Virus record (IMG/VR): IMGVR_UViG_2703718832_000008
Location: 1-16,991 of that record
Direction: 5' to 3' (one strand)
From: a virus
Taxonomy: Duplodnaviria > Heunggongvirae > Uroviricota > Caudoviricetes
Length of the DNA stretch: 16,991 bases
Below, one piece after another: positions 1,156-9,284 of this stretch. Position numbers and translations under genes: made by a program. The notes beneath the pieces were generated by a model that saw only the letters and a program-made list of their open reading frames with translations, did not search any database and was not told where the DNA came from. The stretch's first letter is position 1. Each line of letters begins with the position of its first letter.

Positions 1156-2379
1156 ATGGCTGGCGAACTTAACAAACTGAGCGACAGGAAGTTAAAGGGA
1201 TTACATGGTATCCCGGCCAGTAAGATTGAGTTCTATGCTGATGGTGCCGGGCTGAGCGCCAAGGTAACGAAAGCTGGTGGTATTAGCTGGGTGTTTACTT
1301 ACCGACTCGACGGGCAGAAGCTGCATCGTCTTACTCTGGGACGATACCCGGATATGAGCCTCAAAGAAGCCCGTTCTTCGCGTGATAAATGCCGCCAATG
1401 GCTGGCCTCAGGTAAAGATCCAAAGCACCAGTTGGCGCTGGCCACTCAGGAAACGCTTAAACCGGTCACTGTTAAGGAAGCTATAGAATACTGGATACGC
1501 GAATATGCAGAAGAGAACCGCGCGAATGTTGAACGGCACAAAGCGGAGCTGCGAAAACACATTTATCCTTATATAGGGAAAATGGCGCTCGCTGACTGTG
1601 AAACACGATACTGGCTTGACTGCTTTGACAGGATGAAAAAGAAAACTCCAGTCGCCGCAGGTTATGTGTTCCAGATGTGCAAACAAGCCCTGAAATTCTG
1701 CCGGGTTCGTCGCTATGCTGTGAGTACCGCGCTTGAAGATTTAACAATTCCAGATGTCGGTAAAAAACAGGCAAAAAAAGACCGGGTATTAAACGATAAA
1801 GAGGCTGGCGATTTATGGGCTGCCATTTCCTCTGGCACTTGCTTCATGCCTTACTACACCAGGCTACTGACAATCTTAATGGTGTTTGGGTGCCGAACGC
1901 AGGAGGCCAGGCTATCAGAGTGGAGTGAATGGGATATGGATGCCTGGGTCTGGACAGTTCCCAAAGAGCACAGCAAGGGCGGCGAGAAGATTGTAAGACC
2001 TGTGCCGGATGCCATGCGCAAATTCATTGAAATACTGCATGATGAAACGAAACTATCCGGTCTTTTGCTTGGGTCGGTTAAAGGCAGTGAAGCGGTAAGC
2101 CAGTGGGGCCGTAGCGTTTATAAAAAGCTGGGACATTCTGAACCATGGACACTGCACGATCTAAGACGAACATTAGCAACGCATATGAATAATATGGGTA
2201 TAGCACCACACGTTGTTGAACAGTTGCTGGGGCACTCAATGCCGGGAGTCATGGCGATTTATAATCGCAGCCTGTACTTGCCTGAGAAACTGGATGCGCT
2301 GAATAAATGGTATGACCGTCTCGATATTTTGGCGGGTAATCACTCGAATATTGTTATTTTAAAGGCTGGTGAGAAATGA
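1156..2379 (+). CDS. int: Tyrosine site-specific integrase, P4-like family
   Basis: 407 aa; N-terminal arm-binding-like region, C-terminal catalytic region with HDLRRT and LLGHS...AIYNRSLY motifs (R..HxxR..Y catalytic pattern); GGGTGG ribosome-binding site upstream; placed at the island edge. Confidence 0.95.
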   Translation: MAGELNKLSDRKLKGLHGIPASKIEFYADGAGLSAKVTKAGGISWVFTYRLDGQKLHRLTLGRYPDMSLKEARSSRDKCRQWLASGKDPKHQLALATQETLKPVTVKEAIEYWIREYAEENRANVERHKAELRKHIYPYIGKMALADCETRYWLDCFDRMKKKTPVAAGYVFQMCKQALKFCRVRRYAVSTALEDLTIPDVGKKQAKKDRVLNDKEAGDLWAAISSGTCFMPYYTRLLTILMVFGCRTQEARLSEWSEWDMDAWVWTVPKEHSKGGEKIVRPVPDAMRKFIEILHDETKLSGLLLGSVKGSEAVSQWGRSVYKKLGHSEPWTLHDLRRTLATHMNNMGIAPHVVEQLLGHSMPGVMAIYNRSLYLPEKLDALNKWYDRLDILAGNHSNIVILKAGEK

Positions 2380-3164
2380 AAAAGATAAATAAAATGACCG
2401 ATTTGCCGAAATGGTTTTCATTGGACAATTACAATTCTATCAATGGGCTGAGTGATCTTGATTTAATTAATCAGTTAGCTATGAGAATGGAAGTTGCTAA
2501 TGATGATTTTGAATGGCTTGATACCTATCCCGGAGCAAGAAATGAGTTCGCTTCATTTATGGAAGAAAGATTTAGTAACCCAATTCGGCCGCTGAGCGGA
2601 AAATTATTTGCAGAAAAAATAAAAAGAAAAAAATATTCTGAATGGCAAATGGATTCCGTCGGAGGTGTTGAGCCTTTAAGATTAATTGATGTGATGCAGT
2701 TGTCTAAGAAAGCCGCTCATTATATTGATGAAAATAAAATTAATCGCTCATTGCGTGGACAAAAAAGGTCTGTAAGTAAGACCATAAGCGATAATGATCA
2801 AATGCACATTACTTTAGATTTGTCTTGGCCTGATGAAATTTTATTAAGCGATTTGGCTGCATTGTTGCCAATATGGCGAATGGATCTTGAAAGGAAAAGT
2901 GAAAATAGTTGTAAGTTAAGTAATAGCTGGAGTGTAATCAAAAAGAAAATATTCGATTACAAGATATTGCCAATGTTAGACCTTATGGAGTGGGCTAAAA
3001 TTAACAATGCAACAATCACTAACAGAGTTTTATCTTTGGCCCTATTTCCTAATGCAGAGTATGACGCCATTGGTATCGCTCAAACGATCAAACCGTTCAT
3101 TAGAAATTTTTCCGCAGATTTTTCTATAGAAATATTAAAGCGCAAAGCTATGGATTCATTTTAA
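2376..3164 (+). CDS. Hypothetical protein, AT-rich accessory gene translationally coupled to int
   Basis: 262-aa ORF whose ATG overlaps the int stop (ATGA). Visibly lower GC than the flanking genes, with several A-tracts. No recognisable catalytic motif by eye. Confidence 0.65.
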   Translation: MKKINKMTDLPKWFSLDNYNSINGLSDLDLINQLAMRMEVANDDFEWLDTYPGARNEFASFMEERFSNPIRPLSGKLFAEKIKRKKYSEWQMDSVGGVEPLRLIDVMQLSKKAAHYIDENKINRSLRGQKRSVSKTISDNDQMHITLDLSWPDEILLSDLAALLPIWRMDLERKSENSCKLSNSWSVIKKKIFDYKILPMLDLMEWAKINNATITNRVLSLALFPNAEYDAIGIAQTIKPFIRNFSADFSIEILKRKAMDSF

Positions 3165-3267
3165 TCGGGAAATCCATATAGAAATAATTAAAAATTATCT
3201 AATAGTGAACCATGCTTTTTAATAGCAAATAATAGCCTCCACAAAACGTAGAAACAGTGGAGGCAAC

Positions 3268-3552
3268 ATGCAAAATATCACCTTTACCCCGCCAAATCCT
3301 GAGCAGCGCCGCACCCTTTTAGAAGAGTACGGCTTTAAGTTCGACCGTCGAATTCGTGAAGAAGAATGTAGCGAGATCACCAGCCTTTCCCGTTCCAGCC
3401 GCTGGAAAATGGAGCAGCAAGGTCGATTCCCGCCACGCTGCCACTTTGGTCGTAACAGCTGCGCCTGGCTTCTTTCTGATGTGCTCTGGTGGGTTCGTAA
3501 TCCGCCTGCAGTAGAGAACGTCAATAACCCGTACAGCCGCAAATCTGCTTAA
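3268..3552 (+). CDS. alpA: AlpA-family phage transcriptional regulator (excisionase-like helix-turn-helix)
   Basis: 94 aa; region RIREEECSEITSLSRSSRWKMEQQGRFPPRCHFGRNSCAWLLSDVLWWV matches the AlpA/Vis-type helix-turn-helix as I recall it; GGAGG ribosome-binding site at 3259-3263. Confidence 0.88.
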   Translation: MQNITFTPPNPEQRRTLLEEYGFKFDRRIREEECSEITSLSRSSRWKMEQQGRFPPRCHFGRNSCAWLLSDVLWWVRNPPAVENVNNPYSRKSA

Positions 3553-3572
3553 TTAACTACAGGTAATAGAAT

Positions 3573-4379
3573 ATGGAAAAAATAACTGCCTTGGCTGGCA
3601 GCGGCCAAACTCAATCCGAAACCAGCCAGAAAGATATTTCCAGCGATAATTTTGCTGCGCGAATCCCTGTAACCATGAGCAAGATTGGCGGGAAAGAAAC
3701 CCAGTCTGTAAGCGGACGTAAGCTGCATACGTTTCTGGCTGTAGGGCGAGACTTTACCACCTGGATGAAAGCACGCATCAAACAGTATGGGTTTGTTAAA
3801 GGGGTTGATTATGTAATTGTTGAAGATTTGAGCACCCCAAAACGGGGGAGCGCAAAATCTCGCCAACAAGTCGAGCACGATTACATTGTTAGCCTGAATA
3901 TGGCTAAAGAGCTTTCTATGGTTGAGCGCAACGCGCAAGGCAAGATGGCCCGCCAGTATTTCATCGACTGTGAAGAACGTCTGCGCCGCGTAGCACCAGA
4001 GGAACATGAGGCGGCGTTGTTGGGCTGGCGTAAAAATCGTGTAGCTGCCTGCGAAGATCATAAGAGTATGGCCGATGCAATGAAGGGCTATATCGAGCGC
4101 ACCGGCGACAGGCAGCACGGCTTTGCCTACAGCAATGAATGCTCGTTCCTGAATAGCCTTGTGCTGGGTATGCACCCGCGAGTGTGGGCGAAACAGAAAG
4201 AAATCCCGGTTAAGCAGGTGCGTGACCATATGAACGCCGATCAGCTCGCGCTGCTGGCTTATCTGGAAAGCCGTGATTGTGCTCTGCTGGATCTTGATAC
4301 CCGTACAGCAACCCGTAAGGCGAAACTCACCGAACTGGCACAACGCTGGCTGGTGAAGCGTGTTGGAGGTGCTGAGTGA
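3573..4379 (+). CDS. Phage antirepressor-like protein (AntA/AntB N-terminal domain)
   Basis: 268 aa; segment SGRKLHTFLAVGRDFTTWMKARIKQYGFVKGVDYV fits the AntA-domain pattern (LH.FL.V...F..W...RI..YGF..G.DY). Only 20 bp downstream of alpA, so probably co-transcribed. The start could instead be the internal Met at about 3675. Confidence 0.7.
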   Translation: MEKITALAGSGQTQSETSQKDISSDNFAARIPVTMSKIGGKETQSVSGRKLHTFLAVGRDFTTWMKARIKQYGFVKGVDYVIVEDLSTPKRGSAKSRQQVEHDYIVSLNMAKELSMVERNAQGKMARQYFIDCEERLRRVAPEEHEAALLGWRKNRVAACEDHKSMADAMKGYIERTGDRQHGFAYSNECSFLNSLVLGMHPRVWAKQKEIPVKQVRDHMNADQLALLAYLESRDCALLDLDTRTATRKAKLTELAQRWLVKRVGGAE

Positions 4380-4539
4380 TTTTGCATAACTCAATCAGGG
4401 TTGCGCAGAATTTGAGCAGGCGAAATTCGCACGCGCAAATCAAGCTCGGTGATATGCCGAGTTTGAACAACCGCGTACGTTTAACGTACGGACATCGCAA
4501 CCCATTGAATCAATTTGATTATAACGAACCGTTAGAATT

Positions 4540-4730
4540 GGCGAGCAACAAACACGAACAGTATTCGGGTTCGCCTGAACATCAACACTGCTTAGGTTCG
4601 GCAATCATCTTTAAAGGATGTATCAAGGAAAATCAACAACGTGCAGTTGAGGTTCCAACGAATAACGTAGAGAGCTGCAATGGCAGCGCATTTTTGCTCT
4701 ACGAGGGAAATCAACAACGTACAGTTTTGT
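4540..4730. repeat. Four degenerate direct repeats (~30 bp units, consensus roughly ATCAACAACGTGCAGTTGAGGTTC) in a noncoding region
   Basis: Related units start near 4547, 4581, 4631 and 4710; the two best copies are AAATCAACAACGTGCAGTT (4629-4647) and AAATCAACAACGTACAGTT (4708-4726). Two CGTACG palindromes lie just upstream at 4472-4488. No convincing ORF on either strand. Confidence 0.5.
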
Positions 4731-4860
4731 ACCGTAATCCAAATTTGGCTTACGAGAGGGTAGTACCTCAAAGCCACCAGGTTAACCACGCCGCCAAAAG
4801 ATATGCGGAAAACAAACCCTCTTTAAGAGGGGGAGTCCAGCGTTTGTGCGGGTCATTATG

Positions 4861-4892
4861 TCCTGCGCAAAACAACCCCGAAATTATCGGGG
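4861..4892 (-). terminator. Intrinsic terminator for the minus-strand RHH gene
   Basis: 6-bp stem CCCCGA/TCGGGG with 5-nt loop (4876-4892), followed on the minus strand by TTGTTTTG; sits about 30 nt downstream of the RHH stop. Confidence 0.55.
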
Positions 4893-4923
4893 CAGTCCAC
4901 AGCATTACGGGGAGTAACCCTGT

Positions 4924-5115
4924 TCAGCCTTTTGGCTCGATGCCTTGTCGCAAAAGTTCTTTACGGGCAAGAGCCTTTAGCCAATTGCCAAGGCTCACGC
5001 CTTCCCGGCTGGCAGCCTCATTTAGCTGCTGGCGTAGTTCGGGTGTTATGCGGATCTGGAAGGTCGGTGACAAACCTTCACCTTTCGGAGTTTTATCTCT
5101 TTTGATAGTTGACAT
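4924..5115 (-). CDS. Small ribbon-helix-helix (Arc/CopG-like) DNA-binding protein, putative island regulator
   Basis: 63 aa starting at the internal ATG (5113-5115) with an AGGAG ribosome-binding site upstream on the minus strand; segment FQIRITPELRQQLNEAASREGVSLGNWLKALARKEL has the beta-strand/helix-helix pattern of RHH proteins. The N-terminal extension to 5229 in the ORF track looks non-coding. Confidence 0.6.
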   Translation of the reverse strand: MSTIKRDKTPKGEGLSPTFQIRITPELRQQLNEAASREGVSLGNWLKALARKELLRQGIEPKG

Positions 5116-5163
5116 GTACGTACGTAATCTCCTACTATGGATTCTGTTATGTACGTACGTTAT
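5114..5163. promoter_or_regulatory. Two 15-bp operator-like palindromic sites ATGTACGTACGT[A/T]AT in a divergent control region
   Basis: Copies at 5114-5128 and 5149-5163, centres 35 bp apart; the first contains the perfect 10-bp palindrome TACGTACGTA. They lie between the divergently oriented RHH gene and the HNH-AP2/primase operon. Confidence 0.5.
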
Positions 5164-5444
5164 CACGGCGCATGTAACAAAAGCAACGCCCCGGAGTGCG
5201 GGAACACTGCCGAGGCGTCTAACCACCAACGTTAATAGGAGTAACGCTATGGCTATGCCGCAGTGTAACCAAACTCATCCTAAAAATCGCGTATTTATCT
5301 TTTTGGCTTTAAATCGTGCCGACATGCAGAGCAGGCCACATCGTGAAGTTATTACCGCCGTCAGTGAGCGGGAAGCACGTAAGCTGCTAGTTGGCCGTTT
5401 TATTTTGGTTTTTGCAGGACGCTTACCAGCCAAGGAGATTTATC

Positions 5445-5954
5445 ATGGCTAAATTAACCAATAAATATTTAAAAGAAATTTTAGAATACAGCCCAGAATC
5501 TGGGGTGTTTATTTGGAAAGTTTGTCGTGGTACTACAAAGGCAGGGGATATAGCTGGCAGTATCAAAGTAAGAGGGTATTTAGATATTAAGATTAATAAG
5601 AAGCTATATAAGGCTCATAGGCTCGCATGGTTTTATATGTATGGAGTTTGGCCCGCTAATCTAATTGACCATATTAATGGTAATCGCAGTGATAATCGGT
5701 TGTGTAACTTGCGAGAGGCCACTCACAAAGAAAATTGCAGAAATCAAAGGATGTATAAAAATAACAAGTCAGGAGTAAAGGGAGTTAACTGGAATAAAAC
5801 AGGAAGAAAATGGCTGGCTGCGTGTGCTGTTGACGGGAAAAGATATCACCTAGGAATGTTTGAAGATATTTCAGAAGCAGAGAAAACTATTAAAGATTTT
5901 CGTGAGAAATATCATGGGGAATTCGCCAAGCATGAAGTGACCGGGGAGTTATAA
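5445..5954 (+). CDS. HNH endonuclease with C-terminal AP2 DNA-binding domain (homing-endonuclease-like)
   Basis: 169 aa from ATG 5445 (AAGGAG ribosome-binding site 7 nt upstream). HNH_3-type motif HRLAWFYMYGVWPANLIDHINGNRSDNRLCNLREAT, then AP2-like SGVKGVNWNKTGRKWLAACAVDGKRYHLGMFEDISEAEKT. Visibly AT-rich compared with downstream genes. Confidence 0.8.
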   Translation: MAKLTNKYLKEILEYSPESGVFIWKVCRGTTKAGDIAGSIKVRGYLDIKINKKLYKAHRLAWFYMYGVWPANLIDHINGNRSDNRLCNLREATHKENCRNQRMYKNNKSGVKGVNWNKTGRKWLAACAVDGKRYHLGMFEDISEAEKTIKDFREKYHGEFAKHEVTGEL

Positions 5955-6353: not shown

Positions 6354-6597
6354 CTTTGTAAGCGATGCGCGGCACGGGAAGCGCGGAGAGTTCAAATTGC
6401 CGCTGTTTTGTGAACTGACTGCAGAAGGGCAGAGTCACATCACCTTTGCCCTAAAGTTTGCCCCCGAGTCTGTGGCTGTGTTCCATCCCGATTCGGGAGA
6501 AATATCTCACTGGCTCAGCCGCGGAAACGAGATTATCGACATTTACGGTTGCTATGCCGTCTTTCCTCGCAATGGCATTAGGGAGGAACAGCAATGA
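6343..6597 (+). CDS. Hypothetical small protein (84 aa, GTG start)
   Basis: GTG at 6343 preceded by GGGAGG 6 nt upstream; overlaps the previous stop and ends in an ATGA overlap with the primase start. The ORF-track start at 6253 would run inside the previous gene and has no ribosome-binding site. Confidence 0.45.
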   Translation: MQNDFVSDARHGKRGEFKLPLFCELTAEGQSHITFALKFAPESVAVFHPDSGEISHWLSRGNEIIDIYGCYAVFPRNGIREEQQ

Positions 6598-9284
6598 GCC
6601 GCGCAATTGAGATTATCCGTGAAGTTAAGCGCCGAGCTGCCGGAAGCTGGGAAAGCCTACTTCCTCAGTGCGGGGTGACGGTTCCGCCGAAAGGCCGTCA
6701 CGGCCCATGCGCCATCTGTGGTGGATCTGACCGATTTCACTACATTGACGACCACGGCGGCGGCGAGTGGCATTGTCGCCAGTGTGACGAGCCAAATCAC
6801 GGCGACGGTCTGGATCTCATTGCCAGATCTCAGGGCATTACCATAACCGCTGCGGCGCAGAAAGTATCCTCTGTGCTGGGTGTTGATGCCCGGACACCGG
6901 AACCGAAGCCAGCCAGAGAGAAGCCTCAGACGGATATCGCCGGGAAAGTTGCGGCGCTGGTTGCTAAAGCCTCTCCGGGGCAGTCTGCTTACCTTGCATC
7001 AAAGGGGCTTCAATGCCCCTTCCCGATGCTGTCCGATGGGTCGCTGCTGCTGGTGCTGAAAAACGGTGCTGGCGCGACGACAGGCGCACAGGTGATTAAG
7101 CCAGATGGCAGTAAGCGGCTGGTGGCCGGAACGGTAAAGAAAGGCTCTTTTTGCGTGGTTAATTCCGGTGAAACGCCGGAGACGGTGATTATCGCCGAAG
7201 GACTGGCAACGGCGCTTTCGGTTCAGCAGTTTCGCCCAGATGCGACAATTATCACAGCGATTGACGCCGGGAATTTGCTGTCAGTTGCGCAGGTGATGCG
7301 ACAGCGTTACCCGGATGCGCAGATCATCATCGCCGCAGATAACGATATTAAGCCTGGCGAACCAAACACGGGTAAATCAGCCGCAGAAAAAACCGCTAAA
7401 GCTGTCTCTGGCTGGGTAGCTTTACCTCAGTCTGAGGAAAAGGCCGACTGGAATGATTTTCACCAGCAACACGGGCTGGAAGCAGCCGCAGCAGCATTTA
7501 ATGATTCGATGTACCAGCCGGAGGGCGAAAAGGTGGTGGTAAAACTTAAGTCTATTGACGGCGGTAAAAAAGAGCAAAAATCAGCTCTGCAAGGTGACGA
7601 ACTGAAACCACGCGTGGAGAGCCGTAACGATGGCTTGTACTGGATTACGCCAAAGGTGGACAAGGACAGCGGAGAAATCATCAATAACGAAGCGTGGCTT
7701 TGTTCGCCTCTTGAGGTAGTTGGTTCAGGTAGTGACGGGGCAGAACGCTATCTTGTTTTGCGCTGGCGTTCGCCGCGTGGCCACGAAGATATTACCAGGG
7801 CGATCCCTTGCGCTGATGTTGGAGAGCGTGAGGGATGGCGCTCACTTAAAGCTGGAGGGGTTAACGTGACCACTAAAAACACCTTTCGTGCCATTCTGGC
7901 CGATTGGCTGCAGCAGTGTGGATCTGGTCAGGAATGGATTATCACTCATACCACTGGCTGGCATAATGGGGCATATATCATGCCTGATGGCGAAGTTATT
8001 GGTGATCCAGAGACACCCATTCTCTTTAATGGTCGCAGCGCTGCATCTTCCGGTTATGCCGTTTCTGGTACGGCTGAGGGCTGGCGGGATTCAGTGGCTT
8101 ATCTGGCCGGTGGCAACCCATCAATGATGCTGGGAGTGGCGGCGGCATTATCCGCGCCGCTTATTGGGCTGGTGGGTGCTGATGGTTTCGGTGTCCACTT
8201 GTTCGAGCAGTCGAGCGCCGGTAAGACCACTACAGCTAATATTGCGAGCAGTCTGTGGGGAGAGCCGGATGCTCTGCGCCTAACGTGGTACGGTACTGCG
8301 CTTGGTATCGCTAACGAAGCGGAGGCGCATAACGACAGTCTGTTACCGCTGGATGAAGTGGGGCAGGGGAGCAGCGCCAAAGACGTTGCCACTTCGGCAT
8401 ACACCTTGTTTAACGGTGCTGGAAAGCTGCAGGGAGCCAAAGAGGGCGGCAATCGGGAGTTGAAACGTTGGCGCACTGTAGCAATCAGTACCGGGGAAAT
8501 GGATATCGAGACGTTTCTTTCTGCTGGTGGGCTAAAAGTTAAGGCAGGCCAGTTGGTTCGCCTGCTGAATATCCCTATGGAGAAATCGACGGCCTTTCAT
8601 GGCCTGCAGAACGGCAAGGCTCATGCTGATGCACTGAAGCAGGCATGGATTGAAAATCACGGTGCAGCGGGCCGAGAGTGGGTTAAATGGTTGGCGGCTC
8701 ACCAGAAGGAAGCTAAACAGGCCGTACATGACGCCCAGACGCGCTGGCGCGGACTCATTCCGGCTGATTATGGCGAGCAGGTGCACCGCGTGGCAGAACG
8801 CTTTGCAATCCTTGAAGCTGCGCTGGTGACTGGTGCATCAATCACCGGATGGGATGAACAGGCCAGCCGTGATGCTATCCAGCATAGCTTTAATGCCTGG
8901 GTGAAAGAGTTCGGAACGGGAAATAAAGAGCACCAGCAGATCATCGAGCAGTGCGAGGCGTTTCTTAATGCTTATGGTCTGAGCCGGTTCGCCCCTTTGC
9001 CTTATGATCCTGCAAGCCTGCCAATCAGTAATCTTGCCGGGTATCGTAAGCGTAAGAGCAACCATGATGATGCGCCCATGGTGTTCTATACATTCCCTGC
9101 AACGTTTGAGAAGGAGATAGCGCAGGGATTTAATGCTAGGCAGTTTGCCCGTGCGCTTGCCGCTGCCGGTTTGCTCTCTGAGCCATCAAGTGGGAGAGGA
9201 TATCAACAGAAATCACCGCGAATTGATGGGCGCCAAATCAACGTTTATGTACTTCAACAAGTTGCAGAAGAAGGGGCGGAATAA
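6594..9284 (+). CDS. Primase-helicase (zinc-ribbon + TOPRIM primase + P-loop NTPase domains)
   Basis: 896 aa. N-terminal Cys/His cluster (CAICGG...HCRQC); TOPRIM-like IIAEGLATALS and IIAADND; Walker A SSAGKTT and Walker B-like LLPLDEV in the C-terminal half. Sits immediately upstream of the iteron origin. Confidence 0.9.
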   Translation: MSRAIEIIREVKRRAAGSWESLLPQCGVTVPPKGRHGPCAICGGSDRFHYIDDHGGGEWHCRQCDEPNHGDGLDLIARSQGITITAAAQKVSSVLGVDARTPEPKPAREKPQTDIAGKVAALVAKASPGQSAYLASKGLQCPFPMLSDGSLLLVLKNGAGATTGAQVIKPDGSKRLVAGTVKKGSFCVVNSGETPETVIIAEGLATALSVQQFRPDATIITAIDAGNLLSVAQVMRQRYPDAQIIIAADNDIKPGEPNTGKSAAEKTAKAVSGWVALPQSEEKADWNDFHQQHGLEAAAAAFNDSMYQPEGEKVVVKLKSIDGGKKEQKSALQGDELKPRVESRNDGLYWITPKVDKDSGEIINNEAWLCSPLEVVGSGSDGAERYLVLRWRSPRGHEDITRAIPCADVGEREGWRSLKAGGVNVTTKNTFRAILADWLQQCGSGQEWIITHTTGWHNGAYIMPDGEVIGDPETPILFNGRSAASSGYAVSGTAEGWRDSVAYLAGGNPSMMLGVAAALSAPLIGLVGADGFGVHLFEQSSAGKTTTANIASSLWGEPDALRLTWYGTALGIANEAEAHNDSLLPLDEVGQGSSAKDVATSAYTLFNGAGKLQGAKEGGNRELKRWRTVAISTGEMDIETFLSAGGLKVKAGQLVRLLNIPMEKSTAFHGLQNGKAHADALKQAWIENHGAAGREWVKWLAAHQKEAKQAVHDAQTRWRGLIPADYGEQVHRVAERFAILEAALVTGASITGWDEQASRDAIQHSFNAWVKEFGTGNKEHQQIIEQCEAFLNAYGLSRFAPLPYDPASLPISNLAGYRKRKSNHDDAPMVFYTFPATFEKEIAQGFNARQFARALAAAGLLSEPSSGRGYQQKSPRIDGRQINVYVLQQVAEEGAE

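Follow-up and report, generated by a model that had tools for sequence, protein, structure and literature searches.

We suggest that a 63-aa ribbon-helix-helix (RHH) protein is the repressor of a phage satellite and that it binds to two ~10-bp sites, controlling the Icd-like/HNH-AP2/primase operon as well as its own gene. From the sequence comparisons presented here, we put the probability of this reading at about 0.8. The window, i.e. the whole analysed stretch of 16,991 bp, contains, in order, int (1156-2379), the AlpA gene (3268-3552), and the DUF927/Toprim primase gene (6594-9284). Its closest E. coli islands have annotated major capsid, prohead protease, portal, and large terminase genes, and both the window and these islands show the gene content of Gram-negative PICIs/cf-PICIs. 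The region around the RHH gene is likely to be the immunity and commitment switch of a cf-PICI inserted beside yhdJ. We propose that this switch has three layers: an allele-specific RHH master repressor with its cognate operators, a SymR-type cis-antisense RNA, and an alpA-coupled translated read-through frame. Taken together, the RHH protein, its sites, the antisense RNA, and the read-through frame have the appearance of the “off switch” that Gram-negative phage-inducible islands seemed to lack.

Predicted operators and promoters

The repeat ATGTACGTACGTWAT is found at both 5114-5128 and 5149-5163. These two 15-bp copies were pointed out in the first-pass annotation, and they stand well apart from chance: with up to 2 mismatches allowed, the repeat has 3 matches in the window vs 0.04 expected from dinucleotide shuffles, and 0/200 such shuffles of the window reach that count. 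The exact 8-mer core GTACGTAC occurs in O1 and O2 and nowhere else in the 16,991 bp. Predicted operator O1 (5114..5128) reads ATGTACGTACGTAAT, with the core TGTACGTAC, and includes the perfect 10-bp palindrome TACGTACGTA at 5117-5126, just as had been noted; predicted operator O2 (5149..5163) reads ATGTACGTACGTTAT. The earlier placement of both repeats between the genes has to be corrected for O1, which extends into the RHH start codon (CAT 5113-5115) and takes up the spacer between the RHH Shine-Dalgarno sequence and ATG. This Shine-Dalgarno sequence, AGGAG (5133->5129, minus strand, 13 nt 5' of the ATG), lies between O1 and O2 and touches the edge of the -10 region of the rightward promoter.

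A third near-copy of the repeat, with 2 mismatches, is located at 4481-4495. It is also kept in islands with unrelated small proteins and hence is not specific to the RHH protein of the window; a third copy is absent in class B and C loci, and we rejected 4481-4495 as an RHH site.

The rightward promoter P_R (5109..5138, plus strand) consists of the -35 element TTGACA (5109-5114), an 18-bp spacer, and the -10 element TACTAT (5133-5138). It agrees with the consensus at 10/12 positions in the consensus scan, and its predicted start is at ~5145. The -35 element is invariant in 15 loci, a TAnTAT-type -10 at 18 bp is found in most of them, and EcCICFT073 has the same promoter layout (TTGACG-18-TATAGT). 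O1 lies inside P_R between the -35 and -10 elements, which by position is the Arc/Mnt-type placement, and O2 covers ~+5 to +19 of P_R and overlaps the extended -10 of the candidate leftward promoter P_L (5157..5165, minus strand; TGATAACGT; predicted start ~5150). The motif TGnTAnnGT of this extended -10 is found at the same offset in 13/15 loci, and P_L would drive the RHH gene. P_R and P_L face each other with predicted starts ~5 bp apart. The -35 elements of P_L and of the candidate antisense-RNA promoter described below are poor. Since O1 and O2 are placed on P_R, the RHH start codon, and the P_L -10, their occupancy would block the operon and autoregulate RHH. On the other side of the RHH gene, just 3' of its stop, the terminator scan gives two tandem terminator-like hairpins with U-runs (4817..4893, minus strand; 4893->4875 and 4831->4817), whose repeat D1 shows compensatory stem changes.

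It might be argued that the RHH protein binds these sites and only autoregulates or modulates locally, while alpA and the antisense RNA govern quiescence. Solitary SymE genes outside satellites are under this cassette, too, as expected of a portable toxin-control module, the long frame described below is a route bypassing P_R, and over-expression of AlpA by itself induces EcCICFT073 (PMC6092414), which has an analogous small gene (NC_004431.1:1380473-1380652). However, the near-consensus P_R directly precedes all of the replication operon, and up to the primase gene no second promoter is obvious; the position of the RHH gene between the integration and replication zones is fixed in 12 satellite loci and in three protein families. 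We consider a purely local role unlikely. The repressor reading also fits the order int - alpA - (Bro/AntA) - RHH (opposite) - Icd-like - primase, shared by 12 loci, and the finding that repeated palindromes of their own bracket the -10 in EcCICFT073 and in two further small-protein families.

Covariation of the sites with the RHH protein

The sites and the beta strand of the RHH protein were compared in 18 related loci, 15 of them distinct. All 15 distinct loci have two sites, ~35 bp apart, and none elsewhere. The start-to-start spacing of O1 and O2 is 35 bp in 14/15 distinct loci and ~33 bp in the remaining one (L006). RHH operators normally have subsites 7-11 bp apart, so that the centre-to-centre spacing of 35 bp is unusual for them. 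The position of O1 is the same in all relatives, and when the beta strand changes, O1 and O2 are replaced in concert. Three beta-strand classes correspond one-to-one to three site sequences in the 18 loci (15 distinct), T-Q-R being paired with TGTACGTAC, x-N-R with TGTATAGACC, and I-S-R with TGTATGGACC, a correspondence that rests on about two independent specificity switches and is inflated by linkage, since the RHH gene and the sites are less than 100 bp apart. A single A/G difference in the site tracks N vs S at position 20 of the protein. From this covariation of sites and residues we infer DNA binding by the RHH protein.

In most loci O2 is an inverted copy of O1; the orientation varies and the 15-nt identity is kept, which fits a symmetric protein site. 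The same arrangement would be expected if O1 and O2 were the arms of an RNA or DNA hairpin that, for example, hides the RHH start codon and Shine-Dalgarno sequence. Such arms would be 10-15 nt long with ~20-25 nt between them, a stem would show just such concerted changes of both arms, and the ACGT repeats of the window can still be paired in a shifted register. However, O1 and O2 are direct 15-16-nt repeats in the window, L007, and L019/L020, an arrangement not selected by a stem, every class A site alone is a perfect palindrome, as for a dimer site, and the changes of the sites follow the residues equivalent to the DNA contacts of Arc. Besides, the predicted starts of both transcripts lie between the sites, so that neither RNA would hold both arms. 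We regard the hairpin as quite improbable.

Reading the repeats as operators of an RHH repressor in front of the replication operon, as was first proposed from the sequence of the window, is thus best supported by the comparative and modelling data, i.e. by the Arc-like fold, the location of the sites on P_R, and the covariation across 15 distinct loci.

RHH protein

The gene of the predicted repressor (4924..5115, minus strand) is divergent from the rightward operon, and both its ORF translation, MSTIKRDKTPKGEGLSPTFQIRITPELRQQLNEAASREGVSLGNWLKALARKELLRQGIEPKG, and the predicted fold bear out its original description as a 63-aa RHH gene. The protein has a basic N-terminal arm (residues 1-16), a beta strand at about 18-24 (TFQIRIT) with alternating hydrophobic and polar residues, and helices 25-37 and 42-56. 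It matches the Pfam RHH domain PF05534 with 23.9 bits (cutoff 21), the match spanning residues 18-46 alone, i.e. the RHH part of the family. P22 Arc is the best PDB profile match, with marginal sequence similarity (E 0.1); in the profile alignment PTFQIRI is opposite to PQFNLRW of Arc, and T18, Q20, and R22 correspond to Arc Q9, N11, and R13. In the AF2 monomer model the extended segment 18-24 precedes the helices, and pLDDT is 88-91 across residues 21-60. The best ~40 Foldseek matches of this model in the PDB are all RHH proteins, with a TM of 0.89 and rmsd of 0.6 Å over 42 residues for Arc. By sequence and predicted fold the protein is an Arc-like member of the MetJ/Arc superfamily. The substitutions in its gene show a third-position excess (513/342/1238 by codon position), and in its frame synonymous changes outnumber non-synonymous ones (838 vs 603).

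SymE, which follows the same cassette in L017 and L018, is a type I toxin controlled by RNA. It is one of the potentially toxic neighbours, together with the Icd-like protein in the window, that might suggest an antitoxin role for the RHH protein, in a toxin-antitoxin pair where it neutralises a protein toxin rather than repressing the island; the first-pass annotation had itself named this possibility as one that would speak against a repressor. NCBI names many of the homologues HicB-family antitoxin, the Pfam match falls in a family named HicB, and a 2026 survey gives such small proteins in PICIs as toxin-antitoxin modules (PMC13612085). Nevertheless, the 63-aa protein is a DNA-binding module only and lacks the N-terminal (RNase H-like) domain with which HicB neutralises the toxin, and neither HicA nor a conserved co-directional partner adjoins the RHH gene in the window or in the 15 distinct loci, where the genes 3' of it differ or are absent. 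The candidate toxic neighbours are divergent from it with the operators in between, which is the geometry of transcriptional control, and SymE is not under a protein antitoxin. We rejected the HicB identity and find the antitoxin explanation very improbable; the database label “HicB antitoxin” is misleading. In later surveys these small genes appear among accessory or toxin-antitoxin genes, under the names HicB or YlcI/YnfO (PMC13612085).

A defence-system role of the RHH or Icd-like protein was rejected, as PADLOC gave no match for either. In a near-identity search of complete E. coli genomes the RHH/operator module was absent, and the flanking modules matched alone.

Predicted antisense RNA

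A predicted SymR-like cis-antisense RNA (5256->5172, minus strand), identified with Rfam, covariation, and a covariance model, lies opposite the ribosome site and the start of the 67-aa Icd-like ORF. In its outer helix the anti-AUG GCCAU (5253->5249) is paired with GUGGU (5226->5222), stem-loop 1 (5246->5230) exposes the anti-Shine-Dalgarno CUCC in the loop, and the terminator stem-loop 2 (5219->5185) is followed by a U-rich tail (5186->5176). At the gathering thresholds Rfam has no matches in the window. At permissive thresholds SymR (RF01809) gives a weak full-length match of 27.6 bits (E 0.0085; gathering threshold 61), scores of 27-29 bits are obtained for L004 and L006, and SymR is not recovered by Rfam in the SymE-linked loci. 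Neither C4, isrK, nor CI RNA is present in the window (gathering threshold or E<=5), and the other permissive matches are at chance level.

In an alignment of 17 sequences 96% of the cells pair and 18/24 pairs show a compensatory change, a result matched by 0/500 shuffles. G-U pairs (71 on the minus strand vs 3 on the plus strand) and alifold energy (-30.0 vs -10.1 kcal/mol) favour the minus-strand RNA, and on these grounds we rejected a plus-strand leader structure or attenuator at 5185-5219. Our own covariance model scores the window at 94 bits, a value that is not independent since the window is a training sequence; it gives 57 bits for the held-out EcCICFT073, whose predicted counterpart lies at NC_004431.1:1380767-1380853 on the minus strand, and 31.8 bits for the annotated symR of K-12. 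The candidate -10 of the antisense-RNA promoter, TACACT (5262..5267, minus strand), is within codons 5-7 of the Icd-like ORF; a TAnnnT hexamer is found at ORF +14 to +19 in 14/15 loci, and the -10 of E. coli K-12 SymR, TAGAAT, has the same offset. In L017 and L018 the cassette with the antisense RNA precedes true SymE genes.

Icd-like ORF and proposed read-through frame

The rightward (replication) operon was thought to be headed by HNH-AP2, and this does not hold: its first gene is the 67-aa Icd-like ORF (5249..5452, plus strand; Shine-Dalgarno AGGAG 5237-5241). The ORF matches NCBIfam NF033153 (phage_ICD_like) with 65.2 bits and by tblastn is similar to gp32 of phage N15, in the secondary-immunity region. 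The homing-endonuclease-like HNH-AP2 gene follows (5445..5954, plus strand; Pfam HNH_3 58.6 bits, weak AP2; PADLOC HEase). Between its ATG and the Icd-like stop there is an overlap of 8 nt, suggestive of translational coupling of the two genes.

A frame of 358 codons without stops (4376..5452, plus strand) opens with a GTG that overlaps the antA stop (GTGA). It continues across the supposedly non-coding spacer, passes the RHH gene in antisense and then O1, O2, and the antisense-RNA gene, and its last part is the Icd-like ORF. Thus 5249-5452 is nested in frame within 4376-5452, as kil is within eta of P4; a search for sequence similarity to P4 Kil/Eta gave nothing. In 11 satellite loci the frame is free of stops, and in 9/11 of these its start overlaps or directly adjoins the stop of the upstream gene. 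It is absent in the non-satellite SymE loci L016-L018 and in the satellite loci L006 and L019. Missing from the first-pass annotation are the Icd-like ORF as first gene, the antisense-RNA gene, and this long frame, which links the switch to the alpA/antA operon.

The long frame and the RHH gene share third codon positions. In the long frame synonymous changes are fewer than non-synonymous ones (687 vs 793), the reverse of the RHH frame, and its spacer part shows no codon-position bias (16/14/17). No amino-acid constraint is detectable from the substitution pattern of the long frame, and we rejected it as an ordinary protein gene. That the long frame is the sole real gene, of which the minus-strand ORF would be a shadow, is hardly credible: the frame is open in 11 loci and is called as a 324-aa CDS in vB_KppS-Ant (LR881103.1), where the small gene is unannotated, but the RHH frame has the third-position excess and synonymous bias that the long frame and its spacer lack, the RHH protein has a confident fold and its gene its own Shine-Dalgarno sequence and terminators, and it is still there in L016-L019, in which the long frame is broken. 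Translation of the long frame is suggested by its lack of stops and by the coupling motifs, and stop avoidance without amino-acid constraint is what would be expected if this translation serves to prevent premature termination.

Proposed model of the switch

In the quiescent state the RHH protein, presumably as dimers, would occupy the two ~10-bp sites (core TGTACGTAC). The Icd-like/HNH-AP2/primase operon would then be off and the repressor autoregulated. At the same time a constitutive antisense RNA of ~80 nt would start at about codon 2 of the Icd-like ORF and end at the hairpin and U-run. It may pair with the leader of escaped P_R transcripts over the Shine-Dalgarno sequence and AUG, as SymR does with symE, thus stopping translation of the potentially toxic Icd-like protein. 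Lost coupling and polarity could extend the block to the genes behind the Icd-like ORF. We hold it somewhat probable that the antisense RNA blocks Icd-like translation from escaped P_R transcripts in this manner.

With induction, the helper phage would switch on alpA and the alpA-antA transcripts would continue rightward. Ribosomes might cross from the antA stop, through the GTGA overlap, into the 358-codon frame and translate it through the spacer, along the RHH gene in antisense, and on past O1, O2, and the antisense-RNA gene. Neither P_R nor the blocked ribosome site would then be needed to express the Icd-like domain and the genes coupled behind it, and the rightward traffic would also hinder leftward production of both the repressor and the RNA. 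The logic would be that of P4 eta/kil, except that a protein repressor and a cis-antisense RNA take the part of the CI RNA. That the read-through frame carries alpA-antA expression past P_R and the blocked ribosome site has, in our view, slightly less than an even chance. The binding, the transcript ends, the long-frame translation, and the Rho involvement assumed in this scheme are those that we infer from the sequence.

AlpA is required for the induction of Gram-negative PICIs (PMC6092414; cf-PICI preprint), and the prototype island EcCICFT073 has the same switch layout. We tentatively propose that Gram-negative PICIs, including EcCICFT073, and cf-PICIs share the three-layer switch, that the RHH protein defines immunity groups, and that the cassette has been exchanged with chromosomal symE toxin loci. 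The comparative data offer a candidate repressor, defined operators, and a readable recognition code of three residue/base classes, together with a candidate antisense RNA and a route by which alpA transcription could override both the repressor and the RNA; all the proposed layers are present in EcCICFT073, which is experimentally tractable. If the proposal is true, the read-through frame explains why AlpA is needed for induction, and the switch explains how phage satellites of a very widespread class stay quiescent and become committed. It would also predict immunity groups among co-resident islands, correct a systematic mis-annotation, and provide orthogonal repressor/operator pairs for the engineering of PICI-based “drones”.

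Comparison with known systems

In P22 immI, with its RHH repressors Arc and Mnt, the operator is located between the -35 and -10 elements, and the Pant and Pmnt promoters overlap. The window is similar in all these respects: Arc is the closest solved relative of its regulator, both being small RHH proteins with an N-terminal arm, the predicted operator is between the -35 and -10 of the target promoter, and the candidate opposed promoter of the regulator overlaps the target promoter. Since the opposed promoters overlap in both systems, one protein would control both. The half-sites of Arc contain TAGA, and so does the class B site. However, in P22 immI adjacent half-sites form a 21-bp operator, unlike the two ~10-bp sites 35 bp apart in the window, and the antirepressor is controlled rather than Icd-like and replication genes. 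The window also adds the antisense RNA and the read-through frame.

P4 Kil has ~65 aa, compared with 67 aa of the Icd-like ORF. In the immunity region of P4 (PLE/PLL), as in the window, the end of a long ORF contains a short, potentially toxic ORF in the same frame, the start of the long ORF is upstream of the immunity-controlled promoter and coupled to the alpA-side gene, and the switch separates the integration genes of the satellite from its replication genes. It was proposed for P4 that translating the long form carries transcription through the immunity block (PMC10111431). Unlike in P4, where a CI-type RNA acts, the window has a predicted protein repressor and an opposite-strand cis-antisense RNA, and a real gene lies opposite its long frame.

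The predicted antisense layer resembles symE/symR. In both cases an antisense RNA of ~77-85 nt, in the window a predicted one, begins within the target ORF at a few nucleotides from its start, with the -10 at ORF +14 to +19, and consists of a 5' anti-Shine-Dalgarno stem-loop, a conserved GUGGUUAG-type linker, and a 3' hairpin; the weak matches of the two models are reciprocal. The systems differ in the target, SymE vs the Icd-like ORF heading the replication operon, and in the control, a LexA box vs the RHH protein with its predicted operators.

Stl, the master repressor of SaPIs/Gram-positive PICIs, is larger than the RHH protein and has a helix-turn-helix DNA-binding domain. It is thus an unrelated type of protein, and it is relieved by helper-phage proteins, whereas no such partner is predicted for the RHH protein. 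Gram-negative PICIs, in contrast to the Stl system, were reported to rely on the activator AlpA. What Stl (Rpr) has in common with the window is its divergence from the excision/replication operon and its place between the int and rep sides of a phage-inducible island (PMC6092414).

Finally, in P1 immI (c4-icd-ant) and N15 (cA-icd-antA/B), as is proposed for the window, the first ORF belongs to the Icd family and is translationally coupled to the gene behind it, and a small RNA covers its ribosome site to keep it off. The C4 and CA RNAs arise by processing of the same-strand transcript and are trans-acting, unlike the predicted opposite-strand RNA of the window, where a predicted protein repressor is additionally present. 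The gp32 region of N15 matches the Icd-like part of the window.

Gene order around the proposed switch

The window is a capsid-forming PICI (cf-PICI) whose insertion adjoins yhdJ (1-891, -). It carries int (1156-2379), a DUF6387 gene (2376-3164), the AlpA gene (3268-3552) and the AntA gene (3573-4379, +), followed by the gene of the Arc-like ribbon-helix-helix protein (RHH; 4924-5115, -). Translation of this ORF gives the 63-aa protein expected from the first-pass annotation, which was made from the sequence alone. The same annotation wrongly placed the HNH-AP2 gene (5445-5954, +) first in the rightward replication operon; a 67-aa Icd-like ORF (5249-5452, +) precedes it. The DUF927/Toprim primase gene lies at 6594-9284, and after it come the capsid, protease, portal and terminase genes. 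Related islands share the order int, alpA, an optional Bro or AntA gene, a small gene on the opposite strand, the Icd-like ORF and primase.

The HNH-AP2 gene matches a PADLOC homing-endonuclease model. It separates the Icd-like ORF from the small replication-zone genes, a position at which other islands have none. AntA resembles the PADLOC candidate defence family PDC-S22 in its C-terminal half (E 1.3e-13). A Morganella island (L003, 6090-6158, -) has a match to the Rfam int-alpA RNA (RF02996) at 49.7 bits, above the gathering threshold; Rfam gives no such match in the window. The island with the closest RHH (97% identical; L019/L020, Citrobacter portucalensis and a Logan contig) lies among the head-protease/capsid genes of a lambdoid prophage, a helper-embedded PICI configuration. 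There RHH is followed by a same-strand 238-aa gene of unknown function, and the long plus-strand frame is broken.

Two predicted operators covary with the RHH beta strand

Two 15-bp copies of one motif lie at 5114-5128 (O1) and 5149-5163 (O2), exactly where they had been reported, against a chance expectation of 0.04 matches. Their core GTACGTAC occurs only at these two sites in the whole window. O1 is not purely intergenic, since it shares bases with the start codon of RHH. A further near-copy, at 4481-4495, lacks specificity for RHH.

We compared 18 fetched loci encoding RHH homologues, 15 of which are distinct. Each has exactly two copies of an element of ~10 bp, whose starts lie 35 bp apart in 14 distinct loci and ~33 bp apart in the fifteenth, L006, with no further copies in the 3-20 kb examined per locus. 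The element exists in three versions, which correspond one-to-one to the beta-strand sequence over the 18 loci (15 distinct). In class A (the window and nine loci) the strand P-T-F-Q-I-R-I accompanies the site TGTACGTAC(G/C). In class B (six loci) P-[LMI]-F-N-[VI]-R-L accompanies TGTATAGACC / GGTCTATACA, and in class C (three loci) P-I-F-S-[MV]-R-L accompanies TGTATGGACC / GGTCCATACA. Class B is distinguished from class C by a single base, changed in both sites, and by having N where class C has S at the residue equivalent to Arc N11.

Site 2 mostly repeats site 1 in inverted orientation; the window, L007 (Serratia sp. L9) and L019/L020 have a direct repeat instead, which the palindromic class A core permits. 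These orientations favour a symmetric protein site over an RNA stem. Hence, from covariation between sites and beta strand, representing only about two independent specificity switches in a tightly linked gene and its sites, we infer that O1 and O2 are operators of RHH. The repressor/operator interpretation of the first-pass annotation is supported and extended. The 35-bp spacing is unusual for an RHH operator.

RHH is an Arc-like protein

RHH scores above the cutoff for the RHH-type Pfam family PF05534 and below it for NCBIfam YlcI/YnfO. With a profile built from 85 homologues, its best solved relative is P22 Arc, and PTFQIRI of RHH is aligned to PQFNLRW of Arc; T18/Q20/R22 thus correspond to Arc Q9/N11/R13, the base-contacting residues in the Arc-operator structure. 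The AlphaFold model is strand-helix-helix with pLDDT ~90 over residues 21-60, and its structural neighbours are all RHH proteins, Arc first. Judged from substitutions by codon position (513/342/1238), the gene is under purifying selection.

The 146 homologues, widespread in Enterobacterales, are usually labelled "HicB family antitoxin" or "YlcI/YnfO" in databases. The HicB N-terminal domain is absent from RHH, and neither a HicA partner nor a conserved co-directional neighbour is found in the window or related loci. Taken alone, the RHH/operator pair belongs to the known Arc-like repressors.

In L007 (3001-3188) the RHH gene is 90% identical and a 1-nt deletion truncates the protein at 45 aa, yet both operators are intact; the island may be derepressed or in decay, or the deletion may be a sequencing error. 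A 56-bp block at 4889-4944, comprising the final codons of RHH (…GIEPKG) and the adjoining downstream sequence, is 100% identical in three E. coli islands and 98.2% identical in three more (six in total). In L002, the sole one examined of the six, the small protein is otherwise different and still ends RGIEPKG. The block looks like a recombination joint between modules.

Promoter geometry

A consensus scan finds one strong promoter (P_R) on the plus strand, with TTGACA (5109-5114) and TACTAT (5133-5138) separated by 18 bp. The predicted spacer is filled by O1, and O2 is at ~+5 to +19. The -35 element, which equals the Met-Ser-Thr codons of RHH read backwards, is invariant in all loci, and the -10 is kept in most. 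In 13 of the 15 loci a minus-strand extended -10, TGnTAnnGT (5165->5157 in the window), overlaps O2 at its outer end. With this layout P_R and the candidate leftward promoter would face each other, their starts ~5 bp apart, and every operator would be both within one promoter core and within the first transcribed stretch of the opposing promoter, which is the Arc/Mnt style of control in P22. The candidate leftward promoters, for the RHH gene and for the antisense RNA, have poor -35 elements. Two terminator-like hairpins are found 3' of the RHH stop.

A predicted SymR-like antisense RNA

A structured RNA predicted at 5172-5256 (-) is antisense to the ribosome site and start codon of the Icd-like ORF. 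Its hairpin at 5185-5219 is followed by a U-run on the minus strand only. In a permissive Rfam scan SymR matches 5254->5182, full-length but weakly, with a sub-threshold score for family membership. E. coli K-12 symR starts at symE +6 with its -10 at +14 to +19; TACACT occupies this offset in the window, as does TAnnnT in 14 of 15 loci.

An alignment of 17 sequences, K-12 SymR included, folds into three parts: an outer helix containing the anti-AUG, a stem-loop whose loop holds the anti-SD, and a terminator stem-loop. In this structure 96% of alignment cells pair and 18 of 24 pairs show compensatory changes; none of 500 shuffles matches it. The predicted RNA is assigned to the minus strand because of the G-U pairs (71 on the minus strand, 3 on the plus) and the Alifold energy (-30.0 and -10.1 kcal/mol, respectively). 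A covariance model built without the K-12 or CFT073 sequences scores 57 bits for EcCICFT073 and 31.8 bits (E 5.7e-5) for the annotated symR. Functionally the analogy with SymR is strong: the RNA would hide the ribosome-binding site of a first gene that may be toxic.

The same RHH/operator/leader cassette lies 5' of genuine SymE toxin genes in L017 and L018, which suggests that a toxin-control module has been exchanged between symE loci and PICIs. These SymE-family genes (L017 2652-2864, Klebsiella michiganensis; L018 2578-2865, Raoultella) are outside any satellite. At the corresponding place E. coli K-12 has a LexA box.

A long stop-free frame through the proposed switch

A plus-strand open frame of 358 codons (4376-5452) starts at the antA stop, crosses the RHH gene in antisense and has the Icd-like ORF as its last part. 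One plus frame lacks stops over 720-1074 nt in each of 11 satellite loci. It begins at the stop of the upstream gene, passes through the small gene in antisense and then over operators and RNA gene, and finishes with the stop of the Icd-like ORF. The 11 loci cover three unrelated families of small genes and include spacers of unrelated sequence; the remaining frames over the same span have many stops. The frame is broken in the SymE loci, L006 and L019. In 9 of the 11 loci the first start codon of the frame either overlaps the upstream stop or directly adjoins it, with GTGA, ATGA, or a stop followed by SD and ATG as coupling motifs. In the spacer part, substitution counts (16/14/17 by codon position; 10 synonymous versus 25 non-synonymous) reveal no amino-acid constraint, and selection therefore appears to act on translatability, not on a protein.

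We read 4376-5452 as a read-through frame of the P4 eta/kil type. In P4 the kil ORF lies nested within eta; eta itself is coupled to the alpA homologue and, by being translated, carries late transcription through the immunity block (PMC10111431). The nested, upstream-coupled frame of the window is similar to this arrangement. However, the P4 immunity effector is CI RNA, and no C4 or isrK-type RNA is detectable in the window at Rfam gathering or permissive thresholds.

In LR881103.1 (L023, 'Escherichia phage vB_KppS-Ant') the long plus-strand frame (2911-3885) is annotated as a 324-aa CDS and the small minus-strand gene is omitted. This 16.5-kb record, deposited as a phage, has the PICI order integrase, transcriptional regulator, primase, major capsid protein. 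The 'non-coding' sequence after antA (4380-4790) is 95% identical, with in-frame indels of 48 and 30 nt, to the cf-PICI of E. coli strain ABW_S38, which has a different small protein and primase. It contains 23-nt repeats (4626-4648 and 4704-4726), the 15-bp palindrome GTACGTTTAACGTAC (4476-4490) and a plus-strand terminator-like hairpin (4674-4687) followed by a T-run.

Proposed mechanism and related islands

The model is based on sequence, structure prediction and comparison.

Step 1: RHH dimers would bind O1 and O2, repressing P_R and autoregulating their own gene. We assign this a probability of about 0.8.

Step 2: The antisense RNA probably blocks Icd-like translation from transcripts that escape.

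Step 3: More tentatively, read-through from the alpA operon, translated via the long frame, might bypass both locks and interfere with leftward transcription.

We propose a composite switch of RHH, a SymR-type antisense RNA and an eta/kil-type nested frame, which heads the PICI replication operon and is common to EcCICFT073 and symE loci. A global repressor for Gram-negative PICIs was described as unclear in 2018, and AlpA as an activator required for induction (PMC6092414); the alpA requirement was confirmed in a cf-PICI preprint. The literature searched contains no account of this switch and lists the PICI small genes only as accessory or TA genes. An acknowledged open question on Gram-negative PICI regulation is now directly testable.

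Islands with unrelated small proteins have their own repeats at the same places, and the predicted design is general among related islands. In the EcCICFT073 prototype, whose small gene is now annotated YlcI/YnfO, two copies of GTGGGCCACACCT accompany a TTGACG-18-TATAGT promoter, one inside the spacer and one directly past the -10. L001 has AGTGGAnTCCAC twice, and L002 has a perfect 14-bp inverted repeat. In CFT073 (L022 474-860 = NC_004431.1:1380473-1380859) the YlcI/YnfO small gene is divergent from the Icd-like ORF.
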